A stretch of DNA of 64,000 nucleotides from Tricharina praecox (lineage: Eukaryota), in NCBI RefSeq assembly GCF_024521635.1, contig NW_026250429.1, positions 62,001-126,000 of the forward strand, read 5' to 3'. The position numbers and the translations under genes are program-made. Shown piece by piece: positions 39,630-52,650 of this stretch. Under the pieces are notes generated by a model that made no database searches, was not told the origin of the DNA, and saw only the letters and a list, made by a program, of their open reading frames with translations. The first letter of the stretch is position 1; each line of letters begins with the position of its first letter.

Positions 39630-41012
39630 ATGGACTAGACTGTGAAGAACATTGGCAGGCTACGAGCATACTATGGTCACGACGAGCTCGAAAGCTTACA
39701 AAGTTATTGAGGATGCAGTTATCTGCGATAAACTGAAAGCCAGAACAATAACAACTCCTTCAGCTCAAAAACTCTTCATCCTCGGCATCTGTCACCTGAC
39801 CACGTCTTCCTCCCCGTCTTTTATGCTCGAAGCTGAATGTTGAACGCATCTAGTAGACAACAAAATAACAACTTCTTCAGCTTTAAGCCACTCCCTCTTC
39901 CTTATCCTCCACCTTTTCCACCTCTACCTCGTCCCCAACTACTACCTCCCCCCGTCTTCATCGCCTTCTTCTTCTCCGCCCCAGCACTGGGCGCCATGCT
40001 CTTTTCGCGTGACCAAGCACCTTCATCTTCTCCCTCCTGGGTAAATCTCATTGGCTTATCGAGGCAGTCAGTGATGATCACTGGCATGGGGTGAGTGCGC
40101 CGGGCGGGGTGGGGGTGGAGGAGGTTGTGACCCACATGTCTAAAAAGCGTAGCTGTGTAAGAAGATTCGCCTCTCCTCCGTTACTCGGAAGCGACAGAGT
40201 CATGATTGACTCCGTATTCATTCTGGAACCGCTTCTTCATCATTCCAGCTCCCGTTCCATCTTGAGCAGCTTGATGGCCAAGGCCTTCTTGCCACCCTTC
40301 GGCACGGATCCGGAGTCGCTCTCCGACTCTGGATCCGTGCTGTCCCGGGCCTTGCGCGCCTTCTTGCGCGCCGGGCGATCGGTCCCGGAAATCTTCCTGC
40401 ACGTTTCGCCGGCGGTCAGGTTGTATGCGTCAAAAGGTTTTTAGTTGTGTCGAGCATTGAGAAGTTATCGTCTGGTTGACGTTGGGGTAATGAAGAGGAA
40501 GGGGTAGAAAGAGGATGTTGATGGTGGAGTAGGGTAGAAAGTGAAAGGAAAGAGGGGAGGTTGATGGTGGTTTATAAAGGAGGGAGAGGGAGAGAAATGA
40601 AGCGTGGGCGGCGAAAACCTGCGGGTAAAACCTAACTCGGTGCGTAGAATTTAATTGCCGTAGCGTTGTGACTGCTGGTGTCTCTACCGTCGAGGCTCGT
40701 CTCTGCCGTCGAGGTCTGTCTTTGCCGCCGAGGCTCGTCTGTGCAGTCGAGGCCTGTCTCTACCGTCGAGGCTTGTCTCTACCGTTGAGGCCTGCTTCTG
40801 CCGTCGAGGCCAGTTTTTGCCATCCAGGTTTGTCTTTGCCGTCGAGGCGTGTCTCTGCCGTCGAGGCTTCTCTCTGCATTCGAGGCGTGTCTCTGCCGTC
40901 GAGGTTTCTCTCTGCATTCGAGGCGTGTCTCTGCCGTCGAGGTTTCTCTCTGCATTCGAGGCGTGTCTCTGCCGTCGAGGCGTGTAGCGGCCGTCGAGGC
41001 TTGTTTCTACCG
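39630..41012 (-). mobile_element. Cassette-family copy with full 21-bp array
   Basis: Array at 40680-41010, header at 40490-40670, Lys/Glu-rich cargo, 3' module at 39675-39740, then hairpin ggctacgagc and TIR-like tggactagactgtgaagaacattg at 39631-39654. Confidence 0.7.
40680..41010 (+). repeat. ~21-bp tandem array (gccgtcgaggc.tgtctct), ~15 copies
   Basis: Read directly; an inverted paralog lies at 50855-51035. Confidence 0.9.
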
Positions 41013-41624
41013 TCGCATCATCCCCCCCTCTCTTCCCCTCCACCATCCCCCTCCTCTGATCAACAGCAACAACACCAACCACCTCCCACCACCATCATCC
41101 CCCTTGCGCTTCCCCAGCATCAACCCGCTCCACTGTTCAACAACAACGACACCAATCACCCGCGATTCTTCCTCTCTTCGTTAGCTGGTACCCGAGAAGA
41201 AAAATGCCAAACCTCAACTTGGACGCCGAATCCGACAGCTCTTCGGAGGTGTCTTCTGCGGGCGGCCTGCTGTAAGCTCACTTTCCCTTTACCTTGTGAG
41301 ACCAGCCCCACTGGAACAGTATGCTGACCTACCCAGCAGGGACTCCCGTCATGACGACTTCGAGGGCATCTTCACGGTTGGTATCGGTCACTGGGGTATG
41401 TCCACTGCACCTTCGCGCAACAGTCGTTGATGATCATGCTGACGGAGTTCACAAGAGGCGGCTCGTATGGCGGAGGAGGGCTACGCCCACATCGGCGGTG
41501 AATCTCCCTGCACCTTCGGCACCTGCATCTGCAGCATTGTTAGCACCATCGTACGTGTCGGGTACGGACTGGTGACCCTCGCGAAGGAGACTTTTGGATG
41601 TTGAGGAGCCGGCTTGCTCAGTCA

Positions 41625-41790
41625 ATGGAAATCGGCAACGGAAAATGGGGGGTTAAGAATTTGTGATCGTCTATCTGTTGTGTGGCGCCTGGGATACTTT
41701 CAGTTGTCTGTAATGAGCCGGCGTGCTCGAAAATGGCAATCGAAAATGGAAAACTGGGTGGTTAGGAATTTGTGATCGTGTCTCTGTTAC
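41625..41790 (+). repeat. Imperfect direct repeat pair
   Basis: ggcaa..gaaaatgg..ggtta.gaatttgtgatcgt.t.tctgtt at ~41635 and ~41735. Confidence 0.65.
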
Positions 41791-43199
41791 CTGGTGTCTC
41801 GATGGGCTTTTAAGATGAAAATTGCGGATACTTTCGGTATTCTCTCCTCTACGTGTGCTCGATTCTTGCTGCTATGTACCGCTGTTGAAGGTGTTAAATT
41901 GACAATCCCATGTTTCTCTACCTTTCTGTTCCCCGAACTGCTACAACGTGAAAACCCACGTTCCCTCCACTTTTCATCCGTGAATCCTCAACATTCTCTA
42001 CGTCGCATGCGTCTACGACATCCGCACCTCCGATGGTAGTCCTCTCATCGTGCGGAATTGTCCGCATATCTCCTGCCTACAGTTCGCCAGCGGCACGACG
42101 TGTCACTCGTTTTGGTAGTCGCACGATTATGTCTCTTGCTCCTGAGTGTCTACGTGAGGATGGTAAGACCATTACCCACGCGATGGAATAGATCCTTCTA
42201 GCCGCACGTTGAGACGTCGTGCGGAAGTGTCTGGTTATCCGCAGATTTCATCGAAGCTGATCATGGCTGCGTCTCTGCCCAAACCGATGAACTGATGATG
42301 CCGCGGATTCCCGCAACTTCCGGAGGATATCAAGTATCAAGCCCCGATTACCTACTCATGTTTGGATGGTATGCTACCCAGGTCGCGTCAGTCTCCCGCC
42401 CGGGGTGGCTCATCATGAAGCAAGAAGGTAGGAGTAGTGTGAGGAACAGCAGGTGGTAAGATTACATGTCCCTTCAAGCTTCAGCTGTAATATTTCTCGA
42501 TACTGCTCGATACTGCCAGAGCACTCCTGGCGTACCGCAAGGCAGCTTCAACCACCCTTCCTCTGATGTCATCAAGCAAACACAATTTGAAGGACGAGTG
42601 AGATCACATGTTCCTGTAAATAGAAAAGCGCAAGTTCTCCGAGTCTTTCAAAGGTTGACTGGCTGAAATTTCCATGATTTAACACCAACGGAGCGGGGTG
42701 ATTCTAAGGAGGTTTTTTATACGAAATCAGATAAATCAGAACATTGCAGCCAGCTCATTTTCTTCCTGCTAGATCTTCCGGCCAACTGATTCTTCACAGC
42801 TACACCACACGTTTTCCTCCTTACTTCACCAGACAAATCGGATTTGATCGTACGTTCCTCTTGAATCTTCATTCTCATCATCTTTCCAGTTTCTTCCCCT
42901 CACACTCTCCGCCGTCCTTGAGCACCCATCCACGCTGCGGCGGTCCATCCATCCATCCATCCATTCACCCATTCACCCATTCCGCACGATTGCGCTGACA
43001 TTCTTACCTCCACCCTTCTAGAGCTCATTGTACTCGTCCACCCTGAATCTTACTCGTTAAAACCCAGCTACACTCGACATCTCCCCTGCTCCCTTGTCCA
43101 ATCGCTATTACGACCTCCCACTGACCTTCGCTCCCCCGGACGCCTGTTCTAATCAATCGTGCACAGCCACCCTTCAAGACTCGTCACCCAAGACTCAAG

Positions 43200-44317
43200 A
43201 TGTCCGCAGAGCAGTATTCGCAGATCTCTCCCGGTGACCGTGCGATCCTCGGGAGGTACGTACTACCACATCCCGCTTTGGTCTTCGATGATGTATGTAA
43301 GGCTAACGATACATCCCCAGCTTGTTCGCCAGCGGCACAGTGAGGCGGCTTGGAGATACGTTGGACGCCAACGCTGCCCAGCAGCAGGGGAGCGCGACCG
43401 CGCAGTCGGGCGAGGCGGGCAACGGCCGGGTTGGTCTGGCTGAGCTCGATGTTAACCGTTCCAGAGATGAGCACGGATCTGATAACTGGCGTGTCCTGCG
43501 CCTGCAGGGAGTCTATGGGCTGGGAGTTGCAGAAGACAACACCACCGCTGCACAACAGATAGTGGTGTTCCCTGCGGAACCGGAGGCGGCTGGCGAACGC
43601 TACGATGGCATAATACGCGATTTGGATTTCAACGGCAGTGATCATGACTCGGGCACCCACGGCGTACAGGGTCTACCGGGAGAGACCAGTGGGAAGAGTG
43701 AAGAAGCCAAGGCTATCGAGATGCAAGAGGTCGCCCTCGAACAATGGATGTCGCTTCGCGACGTGGCCATGCGCGATTCTGGAGTGATCCACGACGGCAG
43801 CCTTGATCGCGGCTCGGAGAGTCTCGGTGTCGAGAGAGTCCCAGTTAATCCCGCATCCGACGTTGATGATGGCAGTTGCACAGCTGCACACGGGGAGGAA
43901 CACGATCTCGAGCAGGGATCCACCACCGACGCCAATACTGTGTCTCTGCAGTTGACCCAGATGCAAAATTCACACCGGAATATCTCGCTGTACGGTACCA
44001 CACCCAGCGTCACCTCGCCCTTCGTACAGAACTACCAGCTGCAGAGCGAGCTGAATTACAACGAGTACGTCAGGCAATTCAACACCCGTCCGGGGGCGAT
44101 CCACGGTGCGGAGGATGATCGCCGTCTGCCGGACGATCTTTACCACGCTCACCTGCGTGACGTTTACGTCCATCCCGCTCACCCTCACGCCCGGTCCCCA
44201 ATTTCGGATTCGAAAGTGAGCTGTCGTATCGGATGGTGGGTCTTCTGGATCGTCGCAATCGCCCTGGTTGTCGTGCCGCCCGCTATTGTTCTGGCCATTT
44301 TCACCCACGATCAATAA
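43200..44317 (+). CDS. Hypothetical acidic/disordered protein with a C-terminal transmembrane anchor, 2 exons
   Basis: ATG at 43200 (MSAEQYSQISPGDRAILG), intron gtacgt..ctaac..cag (43256-43320), 331-codon open frame ending WWVFWIVAIALVVVPPAIVLAIFTHDQ. Confidence 0.75.
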
Positions 44318-45011
44318 TAGGTTTTTAGTCTAACCTGAATAACCAGCCGGTTATCTAGTTCAAACTTGCCGATCAGTGTAGTGTCGCCTTCAAGTGTCGG
44401 TTGCTTTGCGTCGCTGTGCATGGGTTGGTGTAGAGTAGATGGTCGCTCTTCATGTCTCGGGCCTGTTTGTATTTGATCTCTCTGTACTTCTGGGAACACG
44501 TACTAGTACGGCATTGGGAAATGAAATTTGTCTATCTAAACCACTTCTGTTGCTTATTTTTGTGTATCTCTTCTTGATAACGTCAGATAGTTAATACACC
44601 ATCGAGACTTCTGTCCTTCAAAATCTCCCTCTCTCTGTCTCTACCGCGTTCCCCCTTCGCACGACCTCCTCTTTTCCGCTCCGCCCAAACGACATCTGTG
44701 ATGGGTGGACAGAGGCAGAGTACCATTATCGTTCAGATTTTCCGCATATAGTTACCGTAGGTTGCACAAAGACTTTCAGGTTTTCCTCGTATCGGCAGAG
44801 TATCGGTTGCACAAACACTTCCCGGCTCGATTGGCTTTCCCGAGCATACCGGTGATTCCTTGCATTCTCTCGCTACACACGGCCAACTCTTATCACAGCC
44901 CAGTGCAGGTTTGCAACACCTTCTGCATGCGGCTGCTGAGCTGATGTTTACCCCGCTCTTAGCACGGCACCTCCGGTCACTGCTCAGAGTCCGGAGGGCA
45001 TCCAATCCGTG

Positions 45012-45018
45012 TATAAAT
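45012..45018 (+). promoter_or_regulatory. TATA-like box followed by a CT-rich tract
   Basis: tataaat followed by ccttccctctcttttctctctttctccc, typical of filamentous-fungal core promoters; lies upstream of the ribozyme-containing unit. Confidence 0.45.
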
Positions 45019-45080
45019 GACCGCCATTCCTACGCCCTTCCCTCTCTTTTCTCTCTTTCTCCCCCATTGACACCACCGCG

Positions 45081-45645
45081 ATGAAGCCTTCGATAGAAAG
45101 ACCGTAAAAACCGGAACCCCGGGGCCCACCCCCAGACGCACGCCTGCCCCCCGCCCGCCGTCCTCCACAAGCCCGGCTCTCTCAATGTGACCATCCGGTC
45201 CCCCGGCGCGCTTGCGCGGCCCGCCCTCGCACGCCCACGTCTGCATCTGTGTCCCCTCTCCGTCCTCTCCCTGTTCAGGTCCGTTCTACGTCGCCCTGCT
45301 TCGATCGCCATGTCGTCCGCCACCTCGTATGGAGTTACCGTTAAACCCCGACACCGATCGGTAGAGACCCTACTCCTTCCCGCCCCTGTGACGTGCACCC
45401 GGTACGCGTAACGTGTCCCTGCACCCAGCTGGGACGCTCCGTTCTACCGTTCGGGGGCGGATATGCTAATCTCCTTTCGGTGTCGGCCGGGTTGGCAGCC
45501 CGAGCCCTGACGATGGTCGCCTTTGAGGCCGAAACACCGTGATTTTAGGTTCGAGGGTTGGTCGCTTCGGGGCGACGTAGTGCTGGCTGTGAAGTATGCG
45601 AGGCGCAGCGGATTGGTTGCGGCGGGTAGAATGGTACGTAGATAG
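45081..45645 (+). CDS. Predicted small spliced ORF (~80 aa) or non-coding host transcript with two introns (45103-45278, 45402-45548)
   Basis: Joining exons at gtaaaa..ttcag and gtacgc..gctaat..tttag gives one open frame MKPSIERPSVLRRPASIAMSSATSYG..VTCTRFEGWSLRGDVVLAVKYARRSGLVAAGRMVRR*. No recognisable homology. Confidence 0.35.
45478..45539 (+). ncRNA. Type III hammerhead ribozyme
   Basis: Stem III cggtgt/acaccg. GUC cleavage triplet (cut after 45484). Stem I ggc+cgggt/gcccg+gcc with a bulged A. Core CUGACGA at 45507-45513 plus an extra U. Stem II ggtc/ggcc with loop gcctttga. GAAA at 45531-45534. Confidence 0.87.
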
Positions 45646-46870
45646 AAACCTGAAGCAATAGATGATCTGCTGTGTTCGTTAATAAAAATCGCCCGAGCGT
45701 CGATGATTATGCGCGATTAAGTGACCGTACTTGATATGTGATATTTCTCGTCGCACAGTATGGGATGAACGAACACTCACATCGACTCCCTTGGGCATTG
45801 AATCCCTCCCATTTTGTGGAGCCTTCCACTGCGATCCCATGTTGTTTCCCAAGTTCAGGCTTCAACCGTTCGCTCCATCAATCCCAGCGCTTTCCCGCAC
45901 GTAAGCCGTTGCCCAATGTTGCACATGTACGTATGTAGTACATACCAAGCCCCGCACCTCAGTACACACGTAATGAGCACGATACGGTCAAGTCTCGATG
46001 TTGTTGCCACACCCGGCACGAACGTCGTCGGCTACCCACAATCCTCCCATATAGCCGTACCGTGTATCGGCTCGTGATAGCATACGACGAAGGGCTATCA
46101 TCTCGCAAGGAAGTCGGTTGTGCCGGTATCGGATTCCTCGGCCCCGTACCTGTGGCATCGATGTCAGCATCAGTGTCAGCATCGCACGGGACGGACGGGG
46201 AGGGAGGCGCGAACTCTACGATAGTGGGGCTCGCTGTACGCGAAGACCTTCGCAGCTGGATTCGAGGAATAAGAGATTCGAGGGATGGGAGGTGGCCTGG
46301 CGTGGCGGGCGCGGTTGGCGTGATGGCGAGTGTGTGCTGGACTGCTGGACGGTGAGGAGTTGGGAGGAGTAGGAAGGAGTAAAGCAGCGTCTGCCATCGT
46401 TGCTGGCTCCCGATACGACTACGACTACCACCAGCACCAGCACCAGCACCGTCGTTCGTCTCCACCATTCGTGCGTATGTGCACTGCGCGCGGGCTTCGC
46501 CGTGAGCGGGAACCTTTTGTTCCGTTTCGCTTAATCGTGCACATCCCGAATCCCTGCCAAAGCGAGCGAGAATCGAAGACACGAGTGAGGTTCTGTGTAC
46601 TACGACTGCAGAATTGCTTTTGACGTACCGGAGGAAGCAAGTAATCGGACATTTTCATGGCCTGTGGGATCGACCGAATAGAGATTTACACAGAGATTTA
46701 CCGATATACACATTGAGATTCACTGAGATTCACATTGAGAGTTGCATAAAGATTTGCACAGTTTCAAGTTTCGGGCAAGAATGTTTATTATTTGCTATCT
46801 TGCGCGCGCGGAGGCCGGAAGATACAAATGAAAAAGGTCCTGACCGATGAACGTGATTTTCTGACCCCAA

Positions 46871-47690
46871 TTACTCCGTTGACATGCCGGCGACACAGCT
46901 GATGCCCTGCGTACCCGGGGCCGGCTGATCTCCCACATCCGTGTGGATGTAATGTTGGTAGATGAGGGCGGGAACGTTGAGGTTATTCGCATCTTGATTG
47001 TTGGTGGCCTGGTCGGGATCTTGGTGGTTCACATTATCCCCATCGTGATCCTTCTTGTCGACGAGCTTAGCGGGATAGTTGTTGGTATTCTTGATGAGAC
47101 CATCGTCGGTACCCACGATAACCTCCTTGACTTCAGTCTTTTTGGGAGAAGGCTGGATGTCGTCCGCGACCTTGGGATCGTGTTCGACACTCTCGACAGA
47201 GGACTTCTTGACAACGTTGATCACATCCTGCGGGACATTATTGACATCGGTACGCTCCAGCAGCGTCATGGGGCGAACATTGACAGCATTCATGGGCGAG
47301 CTAGACACATCAGCATCTACTCATCACGAGCCAACCAGCAGGAGACAGGAGACAACACATACGCTGGCTGGATACGGGGGTTGGACACCCATGGCATGGG
47401 GACCGCGGCCGCAAGGCCAGCTCCGGCCACATGCACGACATTCATCGGTTGGCCGATTACCATAGCTGGGCGTTCAACTTCTTTGTCGGTCTTGAACAAG
47501 GCAAGCTTGTCCCCACCCTTCTTGACGACCTTCTTGATGGACTTCCCGGACTTGTGGCTGGCAGCCTTGATGAGCTCCTTGAGCTCTGCGAAGTGAGGCA
47601 GTTAGTACACATGAGAGTACGGAGTGGGTGAGGGCGACGAACTATGGATATGCTCGCGAATTTTGGGCATATTTGTTGTTTTTGGGGGTG
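46871..47690 (-). CDS. Hypothetical protein with CRIB/PBD-like motif, 3 exons
   Basis: Splicing gttcgt..ctaac..cag and gtatgt..ctgat..tag gives MPKIREHIHKLKELIKAASHK..PAMVIGQPMNVVHVAGAG..SPMNAVNVRPM..AGMSTE*. Confidence 0.6.
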
Positions 47691-48179
47691 ATTGGATTTT
47701 GTGAAGATTATTGAAAAGCTCAAAGTTAATTGAAGTAGTAGGATACTCCAATGTCGTTGTGTCCTGGTTATCTGAAGGGATAAGTAAAAGGAAAGGAGGA
47801 AGAAGACGAAAGGAAGCAACCCTTTTATTGAGGGCCGAGGCGTCGTAGGGTAAAACCCTTTGTGTTTTGGGCAAACCTACTCACGATCGTGAAGTCCCGC
47901 TAGCTGTGTTTTGTCGGCGAAATTATACATAGAATTGTCCCCGTGATGGTGGGGTAAAGTGGTTTTGACATCGAGTGAGTGCGGGAGGCAGGCACAAGGA
48001 GCCAGTACGTGAATCCGGAATCCTCCACCAACGTGCGTCACAGGCGCGGCTTGGCAGACGATAGAGAGATTCGGATATACTAAAACATATGTAACCACCT
48101 TTATGGACAAGATATGGAAATACAGGAGGTCATCACGCTCATAGCATGAGATATCACGGTGGAGCGTGTGAAGCAACCG

Positions 48180-48512
48180 TGATCATTTACTGTGAACCCC
48201 GCGCCCTCACCAAACGTGCTGCACAGAGACTCCAGCTCGCTCCGCAAGTGGGCATACGTCAACCGTTACATGGTAGAATACACTAAGTGATCCATTAGGC
48301 AGGGCATAATCGGTCCCCAATCAATCCCTCAGACTCATGCCAGCACTTGTGGTAATTGTAGACGACTACTACTTTGGGTCAACCGTACTATTCGTGCGGA
48401 CAGGACTCTTACTCGCACGATTACCATTGGCCTCGTAAGCGTGTCGGGTAACTATGATCCTTTACTGTGAGCCCCGCGCCCCTCATCGAATGTGCCCCAG
48501 CTCACTCCGCAA
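48180..48512 (+). repeat. ~65-bp direct repeat pair
   Basis: gatc.tttactgtga.ccccgcgccc.tca..aa.gtgc..ccagctc.ctccgcaa at 48181 and 48457. Confidence 0.7.
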
Positions 48513-50854
48513 ATCGGGATAGCTCACGGTTTGGCAAGCCGTCTTACTACTTCACGTGCGCAGCGATTGTTGGAAGTTGAAGTTATGTATGTCACAGAGC
48601 ACGAATTACTATGGTCAAAGAACGACGGTGTGATATAAAAGCTTAATTCGCATCCACTTATACTGCTTCAGACTAGACTGCTTCCAACTCACTCGGTGCT
48701 GTTTTACCAGGAACGTGACTACGTTATTTTCAACCGGGGCGTGGCGGGATGTGGACTCGCTTGTGGTGGTGACTCCCGCTGCGGCTCTGGCTGAGGTGGT
48801 TGGGGCGGTATCGGCAAGCCCATACGATGCGGCGGAGTGGGAATTTGCAGGGCTGCTAACTTCGAATTGCCGCCGTCCCCGCCGCTGTTAGGAATCGAAG
48901 ACAAATCCGCGAATAGCTCATCAAACTTGGTAATGCTTTGAATGTGTTGGGATCTACGGCAGCAGCCACTTATCTAATCTAGGAACCGGTCTTTTGATAT
49001 TTCACTAGTTGCAGCCCTACACGCAACTAGCGCTACAAACGTCACAAGCTTCTTGCCCCCTCCCATTTGTTGGAAGTAGCGGCGAAAGTGGGGCACATTC
49101 TAGGATGTTGCCCTAGACTGCGCACCACGCGCCACTTATAAAAGGGTAGTTCTTCTTTTCACAACATACTTCGTCCTCCATCCTTCTTCCTTCATCTATC
49201 CTCTTTCATCATTCTGGCATTCTTCATCCTTCACCAACAAATATTCGGTAAGTTACCACGAATCCCAAAGAAACATGGCACACATCGACATGTCCCTTTT
49301 TAACATCACCAGCAATTCTTTTCTTCGCCACTTCATGATTTGCGGCTGTTCTTCGGCTTGCCCTGCACGGAATAATTTCCAAAGCGCAGCTCGTTTTCTC
49401 CGTGATGGAGGTTTTACCTCCACCGTGTGCGTACCATGGTGCGCATATTAAGTAATACCCCATCCTACCAAGCCGCCCGGATTCTTAACATTAATAATCC
49501 CGACGTTTAGAAAAACTGCCTACAAGACCCATTACTAGTGCCACGCCTCCCCTGACTGGATTCAAGACCCGACCGGTGGGGGCGCTCTGCGGATGTGGAC
49601 CTCAACTATACCCTGGTGGTGGTCATGCAGTTGCGCAAGGTATGCTACTCTCGGCCGATGTTCCATTTACTGTTTCATGCTCACATGCTTCTAGTGCTGT
49701 GATCACCCCCACCTTCTGCCACGCGCAGAACCACATCGCCCAGAAATACAGAGCATTGCGGATCACTCCGCTACGATCATGTTTCAGGTTTGGACGACTG
49801 GATGGCACCACCCCATAGCCAGACGAAACCTCGGCATCAGACTGTTCAATAATGGCCCCAATTACAAGATCACCCTGATCTCGACTGGCGCCGGAGGATT
49901 GGGAATCAACCTGGCACTGTGTTTGATGTCATATTTGGTCCGCCTGAAGTGCGAGGGGCCCCCAGAGAATTACTCCGAGGCATGCTCCGATGACGAGGAC
50001 TCCGAGGATGCCGCAGAGAATACTCTGCGGCACACCGATGACGAGGACTCCGAGGAGGCTTACTTCTACTGGAGCCATATTTCCGCTTCCTATCCTCATC
50101 TGGCGGTGCCTCCGTCAGCCACAGCGTCTGGACTTGCAAATCAGCAAGTGAGTCCGAAACTCACAGGGATTAAAGGGACCCCTACCACACCCGCGATGTC
50201 TACAGTCCACTAAAGAACCTCGTCCCAAGTTTTCAAATGAGAACAGGGATTCCAGTCTCCGAAAGGCTACAGAACAAGATGAATCGTCGAAGGCCTTGAA
50301 ACACCCAGGAGGCGAAGGCAAAGGAGGAGATAGCAAAGGGACCTTCAACAAAGCATAACTCGGTGGTGACGATCCGTGAAACGGAATGACGCTGGACCGC
50401 TTGAAACTTGAAGGTACTGCTTTGCCAGGGTATTGGAACGACATCTTGTATAGTTTAATACAAAACCTCAGTCAAGGGTTGTTGAAATACCAGCAGTATA
50501 CGGAGGCGTGGGTGGTCAGCGGCGACGGCGCCGATAGGGCGTTGGCGGAGGCAGGTGGTGCCGGCAGGTAGTCGCCGGCATGATATACGAGTCGGTAGAT
50601 AACGGTCAACGCAAAGGCAACTCTCATACATATCATCCGTTCGAAACTCCGTGCCTTTCAACAATTCAGCTGCTCTCTCAATTGTTGGATATGTGCTAAG
50701 ATGCCGAGAATGTGGAAGGCGGCTCGGTTTGCGTATGCGCGGTGGGGAGGATAGAGGCCCATGCGAGGACGCGCTCACCCAACAGTGGTGTGGCCTGCGG
50801 TCGGAACTCGTGGGGCTACACATAGCAGGTCTAGTGCAGATATAGCTGGACCTC

Positions 50855-52650
50855 TCGACCGCAGAGACGAGCCTCGACGGTAGAGACGAGCGTCGACGGT
50901 AGAGACAAGCCTTGACGGTAGAAACAAGCCTCGACGGCATAAACAGGCCTCGAGGGCAGAAAGAAGCCTTGACGGCAGAGACAAGCCTCGATGGCAAAGA
51001 CAAGCCTCGATGGAAGAGACACACCTCGACGGCAGAAACACAAACAGTCAAAACGCTACGGCAATTCAATTGCACGTACCATGTTTAGTTTCACCCGCAG
51101 GATTTCGCTGCCCACGCTTCCTTTCTCTCCCTCTCCCTCCTTTATAAACCACCATCAACATCCTCCCTCTCTCTTCCTACTTTCCTTCATCCTCCACCAT
51201 CAAGATCCTCTCTCTCGCTCTCTCTCTCTTCTTGCTACACTGCTACTACATCATCAATTCTCCCTTTCAAGACTTCCCTCCAACAATCCCCCCCCCCCCC
51301 CCGAGATCCCCGACGGTCGTGCATGCGCCTGCGGGCGCGCAAATTAAGCCGTATCGTCGCACCCTCCCCATTCGTGTCGCAGCGATCGCTGCCAGAGCTA
51401 CAGCCTCCACCACCGAGGCGACGGATGTTATCACGTACCATACGGGAGTCGAAGAGGCGAAGGAGGAGTACGACTACCATCCTAGGGGATCCAGTAGCCC
51501 GTCACAACCAAGAAGTTGTGATTGACTTGGTTGTGAAGGACTACTGGCGTGTGGTGTCCTTGTGTCTTTTTAGGAATACTTTGCGATTGACTTGCTGCCA
51601 TTCTCTTTATGGACCCGTTCTATTAATCGGTGAAGCTCGTACTAACTACAGCAGGTGTCACCGAAGCATTGAATAACGACGAATGGAAGGAAAATATTGA
51701 CCTCGGTATGTTGCAAAATCTATCTCATATATGTCGACATAGATGACCGAGTCATTACAGGTATCGACGCCTACCGTGACGACAACGGTAAGCCGTGCGC
51801 TCGGCTTTCTGTTCGCGGCCCCGAGAAGCAGATTCCGAATAGCGCTCTGAAGACCAATCTGTTTGCAAGTGCGAATAAGGATGTGGTGAGTTTTATTTCC
51901 TTCCTTCATCTAAAGATCGGGAATATGGGACTCCGATGAAGAGGACTCCGAGGAGCACTCAGGGAGACTCTCAGAGTGTGCTCTGATGACGAGGAGTCCG
52001 ATGAGGAAGAGCTCAAGCTCATCGACCCGCCGAACAACCGTCCCGACGGTTAGGCTATTCATTTAGGCGGAATCTTTTCCGCCAGGAAATTTTCAGTCCA
52101 TCACCGCTATACGATGATGGACTAGTTTAAGATCACTCACTCCTGGGAGGAGGAGTTTTCAAGAAGCTTGACGACTACATCAAGAGCTTAGGAATGGATG
52201 CGGAACACAAGAACAAGGCGAAGGGATACTTACTGTATCTTCTAATCGGAGTCATTCGTAAGGTTGCGCGGCAATCCGACCGGAACGAGTTCGATTGAAA
52301 AAGCTCAGGTGCTGGCCGCTGGCGAGGACGGAGGGTTTCTGATGGATTTTGTGCATCTATTTGCTTTCTGTTTTTCCTTTTATTTTTTCTTACTTTGTTA
52401 TATCCTGCTGTGTCAATTGAGGTGAACATTTCCGGAAAGACTATGCGGAAGAGGAGGAGAGAGGGGGGGAAGAAGAAGGAGGAGGATGAGGAGGGCTGAG
52501 GGGGCTAGTTTTTTCTTTCAATTTTATCGCAGTAGTCTGCATCCTCAATGATTTTGTATCCTTTCGAGCTCGTCACGACGAATTTTTCACAGTAGGCTGG
52601 AAGCCAGCCTGTGTTCTATATAATCCCATCCAGCCCCTCTTTGTGGCCTA
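50855..52650 (+). mobile_element. Most complete cassette-family copy
   Basis: 21-bp array (50855-51035), header with tttataaa (51141) and CT tract, cargo, acidic DEEDSEE block (51930-52010), 3' module (52515-52585), hairpin aggct..agcc and ctgtgttctata..ccagccc (52609-52636). Confidence 0.75.

Follow-up and report, generated by a model that had tools for sequence, protein, structure and literature searches.

A type III hammerhead motif in Tricharina praecox and RNA joints at its predicted cleavage site

Does a solitary hammerhead motif in the genome of Tricharina praecox cut RNA in the cell and, if so, what becomes of the pieces? The motif lies at 45478-45539 on the forward (+) strand of a 64,000-nucleotide (nt) stretch of DNA (contig NW_026250429.1, positions 62,001 to 126,000), which as a whole is referred to here as the window and whose numbering is used throughout; features are on the + strand unless another strand is given. 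An earlier, sequence-only reading had described it as an intact type III hammerhead ribozyme in a fungal chromosome and as a likely active self-cleaving RNA. We observed RNA contigs from two soil metatranscriptome runs that close on themselves with a joint at exactly the predicted cleavage base, C45484. Our best explanation, to which we assign a probability of about 0.65, is that a non-coding transcript of ~500 nt cleaves itself at C45484 and that the upstream rod-like piece, without the ribozyme, is circularised by a host ligase.

The assignment of the motif to type III follows from inspection of its core and its topology. In textbook numbering, the consensus core consists of C3 U4 G5 A6 N7 G8 A9 and G12 A13 A14, together with the A15.1-U16.1 pair and H17, and all of these positions were present. 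Helix III pairs 45478-45483 with 45534-45539 (CGGUGU with ACACCG, 6 base pairs (bp), including U16.1 at 45483 with A15.1 at 45534) and is followed by the cleavage base C17 at 45484, which places the predicted scissile bond between C45484 and G45485. Helix I pairs 45485-45492 with 45498-45506 in 8 pairs, with A45503 bulged and a U-G pair closing loop 1 (UGGCA, 45493-45497). The core segment CUGACGA (45507-45513) is followed by an extra U at 45514, between A9 and G10.1, and then by helix II, which pairs 45515-45518 with 45527-45530 (4 bp, one of them U-G, beginning with G45515-C45530 as G10.1-C11.1) around the 8-nt loop 2 (GCCUUUGA, 45519-45526). The core segment GAA (45531-45533) completes the junction. 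Loops close helices I and II and helix III is open, as in type III. Drawn by hand in this way, the structure has a predicted free energy of -24.7 kcal/mol, compared with a minimum free energy (MFE) of -27.1. The core elements thus occur in the correct order, with all three stems paired and a GUC triplet, as the sequence-only reading had stated.

The dimensions of the motif are within or near the range of natural type III hammerheads, with loop 2 somewhat long. Helix I has 8 pairs (bulged) and a 5-nt loop, helix II has 4 pairs and an 8-nt loop and helix III has 6 pairs, while the corresponding values given in Table 1 of PMC1636495 are 7/4, 4/4 and 6 for eggplant latent viroid (ELVd), 6/7, 5/6 and 7 for the (+) hammerhead of chrysanthemum chlorotic mottle viroid (CChMVd), 6/7, 4/4 and 4 for the (+) hammerhead of the tobacco ringspot virus satellite RNA (sTRSV) and 6/13, 4/6 and 5 for the (-) hammerhead of the lucerne transient streak virus satellite RNA (sLTSV). 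The extra base after A9 had been described as a natural variation, with the extra A of CChMVd as the example, and this agrees with the account in PMC3705267 (citing De la Pena & Flores 2001), where the natural extra A of CChMVd (+) lowers the rate moderately, a C or G in that position is harmful and the change of A10 to U speeds trans-cleavage 3-4-fold. The extra U45514 is therefore compatible with activity, since a U in that position raised the rate of CChMVd (+). The GGC/GCC complementarity between loops 1 and 2 that had been pointed out is also present in the sequence; random loops of 5 and 8 nt share a 3-nt Watson-Crick match by chance in 22% of cases, and the predicted tertiary contact between the loops rests on a match of this length.

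Public sequencing runs were searched with 45200-45900, which yielded eight runs from four studies, seven of them with part of the stretch, and four of the runs (X2, X3, X6 and X7) were compared with 42000-49000 of the window. All of the RNA data are assembled contigs, which show cover and joins and not strand, ends or levels. The soil metatranscriptome runs X6 and X7 represent two samples of one study, and a single self-closing contig was observed in each. The X6 contig (187 nt, depth 77) reads 45440..45484 and then 45328..45469, which would correspond to a 157-nt circular RNA of 45328-45484, and the X7 contig (171 nt, depth 60) reads 45406..45484 and then 45344..45435, which would correspond to a 141-nt circular RNA of 45344-45484. 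The ends of each contig overlap by 30 nt, and a 30-base end overlap is what a graph assembler working at k=31 yields for a cycle. The pieces of both contigs match the locus with 0 other letters, and both joints have 0 ambiguous or shared letters and no inserted letters. Both putative circles consist of the upstream fragment and do not contain the ribozyme core.

The upstream side of the joint was exactly 45484, the predicted C17, in both of the metatranscriptome runs examined. This is one position within the ~500-nt unit, and it had been named from the sequence alone before the RNA data were consulted. Whether or not the product is circular, an RNA 3' end at 45484 joined to a 5' end would be difficult to account for had the RNA not been cut at the hammerhead site. 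The proposal of an active self-cleaving + strand RNA gains independent support from these joints and from contigs across the locus in two more runs, and we consider an active genomic hammerhead to be supported, indirectly but specifically, by independent RNA data.

Cleavage at 45484 could also have been followed by a different event, in which abundant linear fragments (45328-45484 and 45344-45484) were joined head-to-tail by template switching of the reverse transcriptase (RT) and then closed by the assembler. Such an origin would suit joints that are known only from assembled contigs of one study, from which circularity is not provable, and it would suit 5' sides that differ across runs, as is the case for degradation ends. 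Template switching usually uses microhomology or adds bases, however, whereas neither joint has shared or inserted letters, and each contig closes exactly, with its 30-nt overlap and at a depth of 60-77. The rod fold predicted for both sequences (see below) would moreover place the joined ends next to each other. We consider template switching an unlikely source of the joints.

The two remaining runs, X2 and X3, are transcriptome-like, come from two studies and carry different organism labels. Each contained one contig across the hammerhead, and the two outline an RNA unit of ~500 nt (45123-45634, apparently + strand), with 45130-45626 covered in X2 at a mean word depth of 1585 and 45123-45634 covered in X3 at a depth of 189. 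An adapter-like loose end was observed in X2 immediately after 45626, which suggests that many molecules end there; from this end and the cleavage site, the predicted 3' cleavage fragment, comprising the ribozyme body and a downstream tail, would span 45485-45626. Neighbouring contigs had depths of 15.8 in X2 and 2.6-8 in X3. These values hint at a highly abundant transcript, contig depth being a poor measure of expression. Within 45100-45660, + strand open reading frames (ORFs) that start with ATG reach at most 33 codons, which makes a non-coding RNA probable, and no Rfam family explains the rest of the ~500-nt unit.

A TATAAA box was observed at 45013-45018, ~105-115 nt upstream of the contig starts (45123/45130), with a pyrimidine-rich (CT) tract at 45037-45066 just upstream of these starts, and together they may represent the RNA polymerase II promoter of the hammerhead-bearing transcript. 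We infer the + strand for this transcript from the promoter elements, the hammerhead and the joints. A scan for bacterial promoters and terminators was uninformative, the DNA being eukaryotic.

The neighbouring contig of X2 is spliced, which identifies X2 as RNA. This contig covers 45781-46647 on the minus strand, convergent with the hammerhead RNA, and skips 45890-45945 (56 nt) and 46148-46212 (65 nt); the skips have CT..AC ends, which identifies them as GT..AG introns of a gene on the minus strand. The largest exon of this transcript encodes low-complexity sequence without a Pfam family. X3 covers 45702-46289 unspliced. The rest of 42000-49000 had no cover in X6 and X7, and most bins were empty in X2 and X3, which is no evidence of absence.

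The discrete ends of the ~500-nt unit, nearly coincident in X2 and X3, and its depth far above that of its neighbours (1585 vs 15.8 and 189 vs 2.6-8) raise the question of whether the unit is a member of a multi-copy family of elements that carry a hammerhead, such as a retrozyme-like solo long terminal repeat (LTR), a repeat resembling a short interspersed nuclear element (SINE) or an endogenised viroid-like RNA, with the RNA coming from the whole family. The depth could reflect copy number if X3 were partly DNA, and the first reported fungal hammerheads, those of Yarrowia lipolytica, are described as lying on interspersed multi-copy repeats (PMC3088659). In the present case, by contrast, the 64 kb contain a single copy, and 40-52 kb revealed neither flanking direct repeats nor another hammerhead, and no reverse transcriptase or other domain of a transposon. 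The circles lack the ribozyme, whereas retrozyme and viroid-like monomers run from cleavage site to cleavage site, and the circle contig pieces match this very locus with 0 other letters. X2, with its spliced neighbouring contig, is RNA. We judge a multi-copy origin to be quite improbable, and the earlier remark that the motif lacks a second copy, an LTR and a Penelope context is borne out within the window.

A self-written type III descriptor gave 45478-45539 as its sole match on both strands of the window, no minus-strand hammerhead was found in the window by the descriptor or by Rfam, and no second copy was present there. In 43 Mb of simulated sequence (order-2 Markov, modelled on the window), both strands taken together, the descriptor gave one match at its loosest setting (helix I of at least 3, helix II of at least 3 and helix III of at least 4 bp) and 0 matches with helix I of at least 3, helix II of at least 4 and helix III of at least 6 bp. 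The bare core pattern is not rare, with 1 match vs 0.23 expected and at least one match in 21 of 100 shuffles. A 19-position pattern of core and loop 1 (U16.1, H17, loop 1, core, G10.1, C11.1 and GAAA at fixed spacing) had a single match in the window, and none of 100 shuffles contained it.

The same 19-position pattern was found elsewhere in 81 stretches of public metagenome contigs and in one of viral contigs, while a second scan of viral contigs gave 0 matches. All 82 were scored for pairing. The three helices were formed in none of them, compared with 8/8, 4/4 and 6 bp in the candidate; helix III exceeded 5 bp in none, and the best of the 82 by summed pairs had 5/8 in helix I, 4/4 in helix II and 1 bp in helix III. 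The 81 metagenome matches are chance occurrences, mostly in repeated bacterial coding sequence, and the sequence of the window itself was not among them; the single viral match is likewise due to chance. A BLAST comparison of 45000-45700 with the 82 matched loci returned nothing, and a protein-level search with the antisense frame 45444-45716 returned no look-alikes. By a rough estimate, a motif of such quality would be expected less than one time across many gigabases.

Both circle sequences are predicted to fold as an unbranched rod. The circular fold of the 157-nt sequence has a free energy of -52.8 kcal/mol (z -2.55, with 3 of 300 shuffles as good), and that of the 141-nt sequence, 55% paired, has -50.8 kcal/mol (z -3.46, with 2 of 300 shuffles as good). 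In the MFE structures, 45350-45357 (GACACCGA) and 45477-45484 (UCGGUGUC) close the rod with an 8-bp helix, which shares bases with the 5' strand of hammerhead helix III and which, in the uncleaved transcript, can gain two pairs and reach 45486. The rod would thus set 45484 beside 45350, with the 45344 end six bases away and the 45328 end 22. The MFE structure of the full transcript also contains a predicted long-range helix of 13 contiguous bp between 45284-45296 and 45569-45581 (-28.1 kcal/mol), which is underlain by a perfect 11-nt complement (45286-45296 with 45570-45580) and encloses both the rod and the ribozyme; such a helix might keep the two cleavage products together.

Several observations weigh against cleavage followed by circularisation. 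The evidence for circles consists of assembled contigs from one study, which do not by themselves show strand, ends or true circularity, and the 5' side of the joint differs between the runs (45328 vs 45344). No ribozyme family or motif accounted for these 5' sides in Rfam searches at E<=10 or by inspection. A second ribozyme at the 5' ends was looked for in 45270-45400 and 45100-45290, where Rfam at E<=10 returned only IRES_mnt (7 bits) and RT-13 (13.8 bits), both regarded as noise, and the bases around 45328 and 45344, which share no motif, fitted neither the hammerhead rules nor an Ire1-type loop by eye. No homologue in which covariation of the helices could be read was found in the metagenome or viral contig scans or in the protein-level search. 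The literature searched held no precedent for a single genomic hammerhead that yields a ribozyme-free circle.

The Rfam results weigh in the same direction. No Rfam family, hammerheads included, reached its gathering score on the whole window, and searches of 261 nt and 851 nt returned no hammerhead family at E<=10; the only hits at that cutoff, c4-a1b1 and SNORD105, were dismissed as noise. In a 70-nt search, Hammerhead_3 (RF00008) scored 17.6 bits (E 0.084) against a gathering threshold of 48.5, so that the check by Hammerhead_3 proposed with the sequence-only reading came out below the score for family membership. The alignment is full-length, with model positions 1-54 on 45477-45540 of the window, and leaves both hairpins as unaligned inserts, with the result that neither helix II nor distal helix I adds to the score.

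Predicted folding energies add to these points. The MFE of the 62-mer reaches only z -1.55, and the active fold lies 3.4 kcal/mol above the ensemble in the 62-mer and 6.4-8.2 kcal/mol above it in transcript context under a nearest-neighbour model, which leaves out the tertiary energy of the core. The cost in transcript context arises because the upstream 8-bp helix takes the 5' strand of helix III. Through its competition with helix III, this helix probably makes cleavage slow or incomplete, and some transcript would stay uncut. The competition may represent a switch, in which molecules adopt the ribozyme fold rarely or transiently, only part of the RNA is cut and the rod then traps the new 3' end. 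The description of the motif as a fast type III hammerhead is doubtful given this modelled cost, and the interpretation offered by the sequence-only reading was, overall, partly supported.

The sub-threshold Rfam score, the searches that returned no homologue and the fold that the model disfavours would also be expected of a chance look-alike, in which case the end at 45484 would be the product of a protein nuclease, or of trimming from the 3' side that halted at the base of the rod. The 8-bp rod helix with 45350-45357 also ends at position 45484, which makes a structure-defined end conceivable. A motif of equal quality was, however, found neither in the 43 Mb simulation nor among the 82 real pattern matches, and the exact site was predicted ahead of the RNA data. 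The rod helix can be extended to 45486 in the uncleaved RNA, so trimming is not expected to halt at 45484, which weakens this explanation. Exonuclease ends carry a 3'-OH, which fungal tRNA ligase is not known to join. We regard a chance motif as the least probable of the three alternatives.

The sequence of events that we favour, self-cleavage followed by host ligation, would begin with transcription of the ~500-nt non-coding RNA from the + strand, starting near 45120, downstream of the TATA box. The hammerhead would then cut between C45484 and G45485. Hammerhead chemistry leaves a 2',3'-cyclic phosphate, which would here be carried by C45484. The 3' end of the upstream product would be held in the 8-bp helix with 45350-57 that closes the rod-like domain, and removal of upstream sequence at 45328 or 45344, by a cut or by trimming, would bring the two ends near each other. 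A host RNA ligase of the tRNA-ligase type could then seal them into a 157- or 141-nt circle without the ribozyme core. Ligation of this kind has been described for other hammerhead products, as tRNA ligases are reported to circularise hammerhead-cleaved viroid and retrozyme RNAs (PMC5680766; bioRxiv 10.1101/2022.01.19.477025). The data show the motif, its rarity, RNA contigs that cross the locus and closed contigs joined at 45484, while the strand, the promoter, the end chemistry, the ligase, the true circularity of the product and any function that it may have are what we infer. A more specific version of this scheme is tentative, and we give it somewhat less than an even chance: the locus would be a single-copy fungal non-coding RNA gene that uses the hammerhead purely as a 3'-end maker, discards the ribozyme and leaves its rod to be closed by host tRNA ligase as a stable circle of 141-157 nt.

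Outside 40000-52000, the window contains typical eukaryotic genes (WSC, Y_phosphatase3, GTP cyclohydrolase II, ankyrin and methyltransferase). Its fungus-like character comes from short introns and from split ORFs with WSC, Y_phosphatase3, GTP cyclohydrolase II and ankyrin domains; an Atlas search with a phosphatase exon returned a mixture of bacterial and eukaryotic clusters and did not decide the taxon. The earlier placement in a fungal chromosome fits this gene content and the 56- and 65-nt GT..AG introns, a fit that does not amount to confirmation. No tRNA genes were found in the window, and no Pfam family was found in ORFs of at least 110 codons in the 12 kb of 40000-52000, though at least two RNAs are made there. 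Two arrays of a 19-nt tandem repeat were observed at 40679-41015 (+, 17.7 copies) and 50854-51040 (9.8 copies), inverted and ~9.8 kb apart, with the hammerhead locus between them, near the middle. Long ORFs without a Pfam family run across both arrays, which is possible since the repeat unit has no stop in any frame of that strand. The arrays could mark the two ends of a large mobile element or represent a pair of inverted minisatellites. A 77-nt C-rich unit is present in two copies at 41016-41160, directly after the first array.

Genomic hammerheads are common, but their activity or role in vivo is mostly not established, and fungal examples are few. This locus combines a clean single ribozyme, a seemingly abundant transcript and RNA joints at the exact predicted cut site. 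It is more interesting than first proposed, since cleavage by the ribozyme apparently frees an upstream RNA that turns up as a small circle. If the scheme is true, it would represent a cellular use of a hammerhead as a device for processing RNA 3' ends, and small circular RNAs would arise from one ribozyme and host enzymes, a natural ribozyme-assisted path to ribozyme-free circular RNA that differs from viroids, retrozymes and back-splicing. In the modelled competition of the rod helix with helix III, the RNA would also have a built-in switch. Loci of this kind would be a possible endogenous source of viroid-like small circles in fungal and soil metatranscriptomes, which bears on the origin of such circles and on the reading of small circles in fungi and soils as exogenous.

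Compared with known systems, the motif resembles the type III hammerheads of viroids, plant satellite RNAs and retrozymes (RF00008) in its core, helix order, open helix III, GUC triplet and helix and loop sizes, and resembles the CChMVd (+) hammerhead in the extra base after A9. It differs from RF00008 members in its score (17.6 bits vs 48.5), bulged helix I and 8-nt loop 2, and in being a single ribozyme of one polarity, chromosomal in a fungus-like eukaryote. Penelope-like hammerheads are type I and occur in repeats that flank an ORF with RT and GIY-YIG domains, whereas the topology here is type III and no RT or endonuclease domain was found in the 121 ORFs of the window. Viroid-like and ambivirus-like circular replicons have no DNA stage, and their circles carry ribozymes of their own, usually in both polarities. 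Such a replicon does not describe the locus either, since it is chromosomal and of one polarity; it lies between spliced genes, the circles lack the core and no minus-strand hammerhead was found. The plant retrozymes, as far as they are described in PMC4918200 and PMC5680766, share with this locus a genome-encoded type III hammerhead, an abundant small non-coding circular RNA and circularisation by tRNA ligase (proposed here). They carry two LTR-borne hammerheads, however, and form circles of 600-1000 nt that run from cleavage site to cleavage site with the ribozyme included, whereas here a single hammerhead was found in 64 kb, with no flanking direct repeat or LTR (primer binding site and polypurine tract were not searched for), and the circles have 141/157 nt without the ribozyme core. 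The locus fits a type III hammerhead and is not a retrozyme, a viroid-like replicon or of Penelope type.

Within the fungi, the locus can be compared by description with Yarrowia lipolytica (PMC3088659), which also has a hammerhead in its nuclear genome; unlike the repeats described there, the present motif is single-copy in the window and has promoter-like elements of its own. Small non-coding circles in a filamentous fungus are also known as the BdcRNA 'mycoviroids' of Botryosphaeria dothidea, which have 157-450 nt and which PMC9875651 presents as exogenous, without similarity to the host genome and without a hammerhead. One of them, BdcRNA 3.2, also has 157 nt. A link was considered and rejected, as BdcRNA 3.2 has ~40% G+C vs 60% here (PMC9875651) and the shared size is a coincidence; the only match to the BdcRNA 2 motif in the window has 3 mismatches and lies elsewhere.

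The proposed route has its closest parallels in circles made by host ligases. In engineered ribozyme-flanked 'Tornado' RNAs, a tRNA-type ligase makes a circle from ribozyme-cut ends. The tRNA intronic circular RNAs, as outlined in PMC4536317, are small structured circles without cutting activity, as is proposed for the circles here. The ends of these RNAs are both precise, being set by an endonuclease or by two ribozymes, while only the 3' end is ribozyme-defined at the present locus and the 5' end varies (45328/45344). In these systems, and by the route proposed here, a helix keeps the 5' end near a 3' end with a cyclic phosphate, and the two are sealed by a host ligase.

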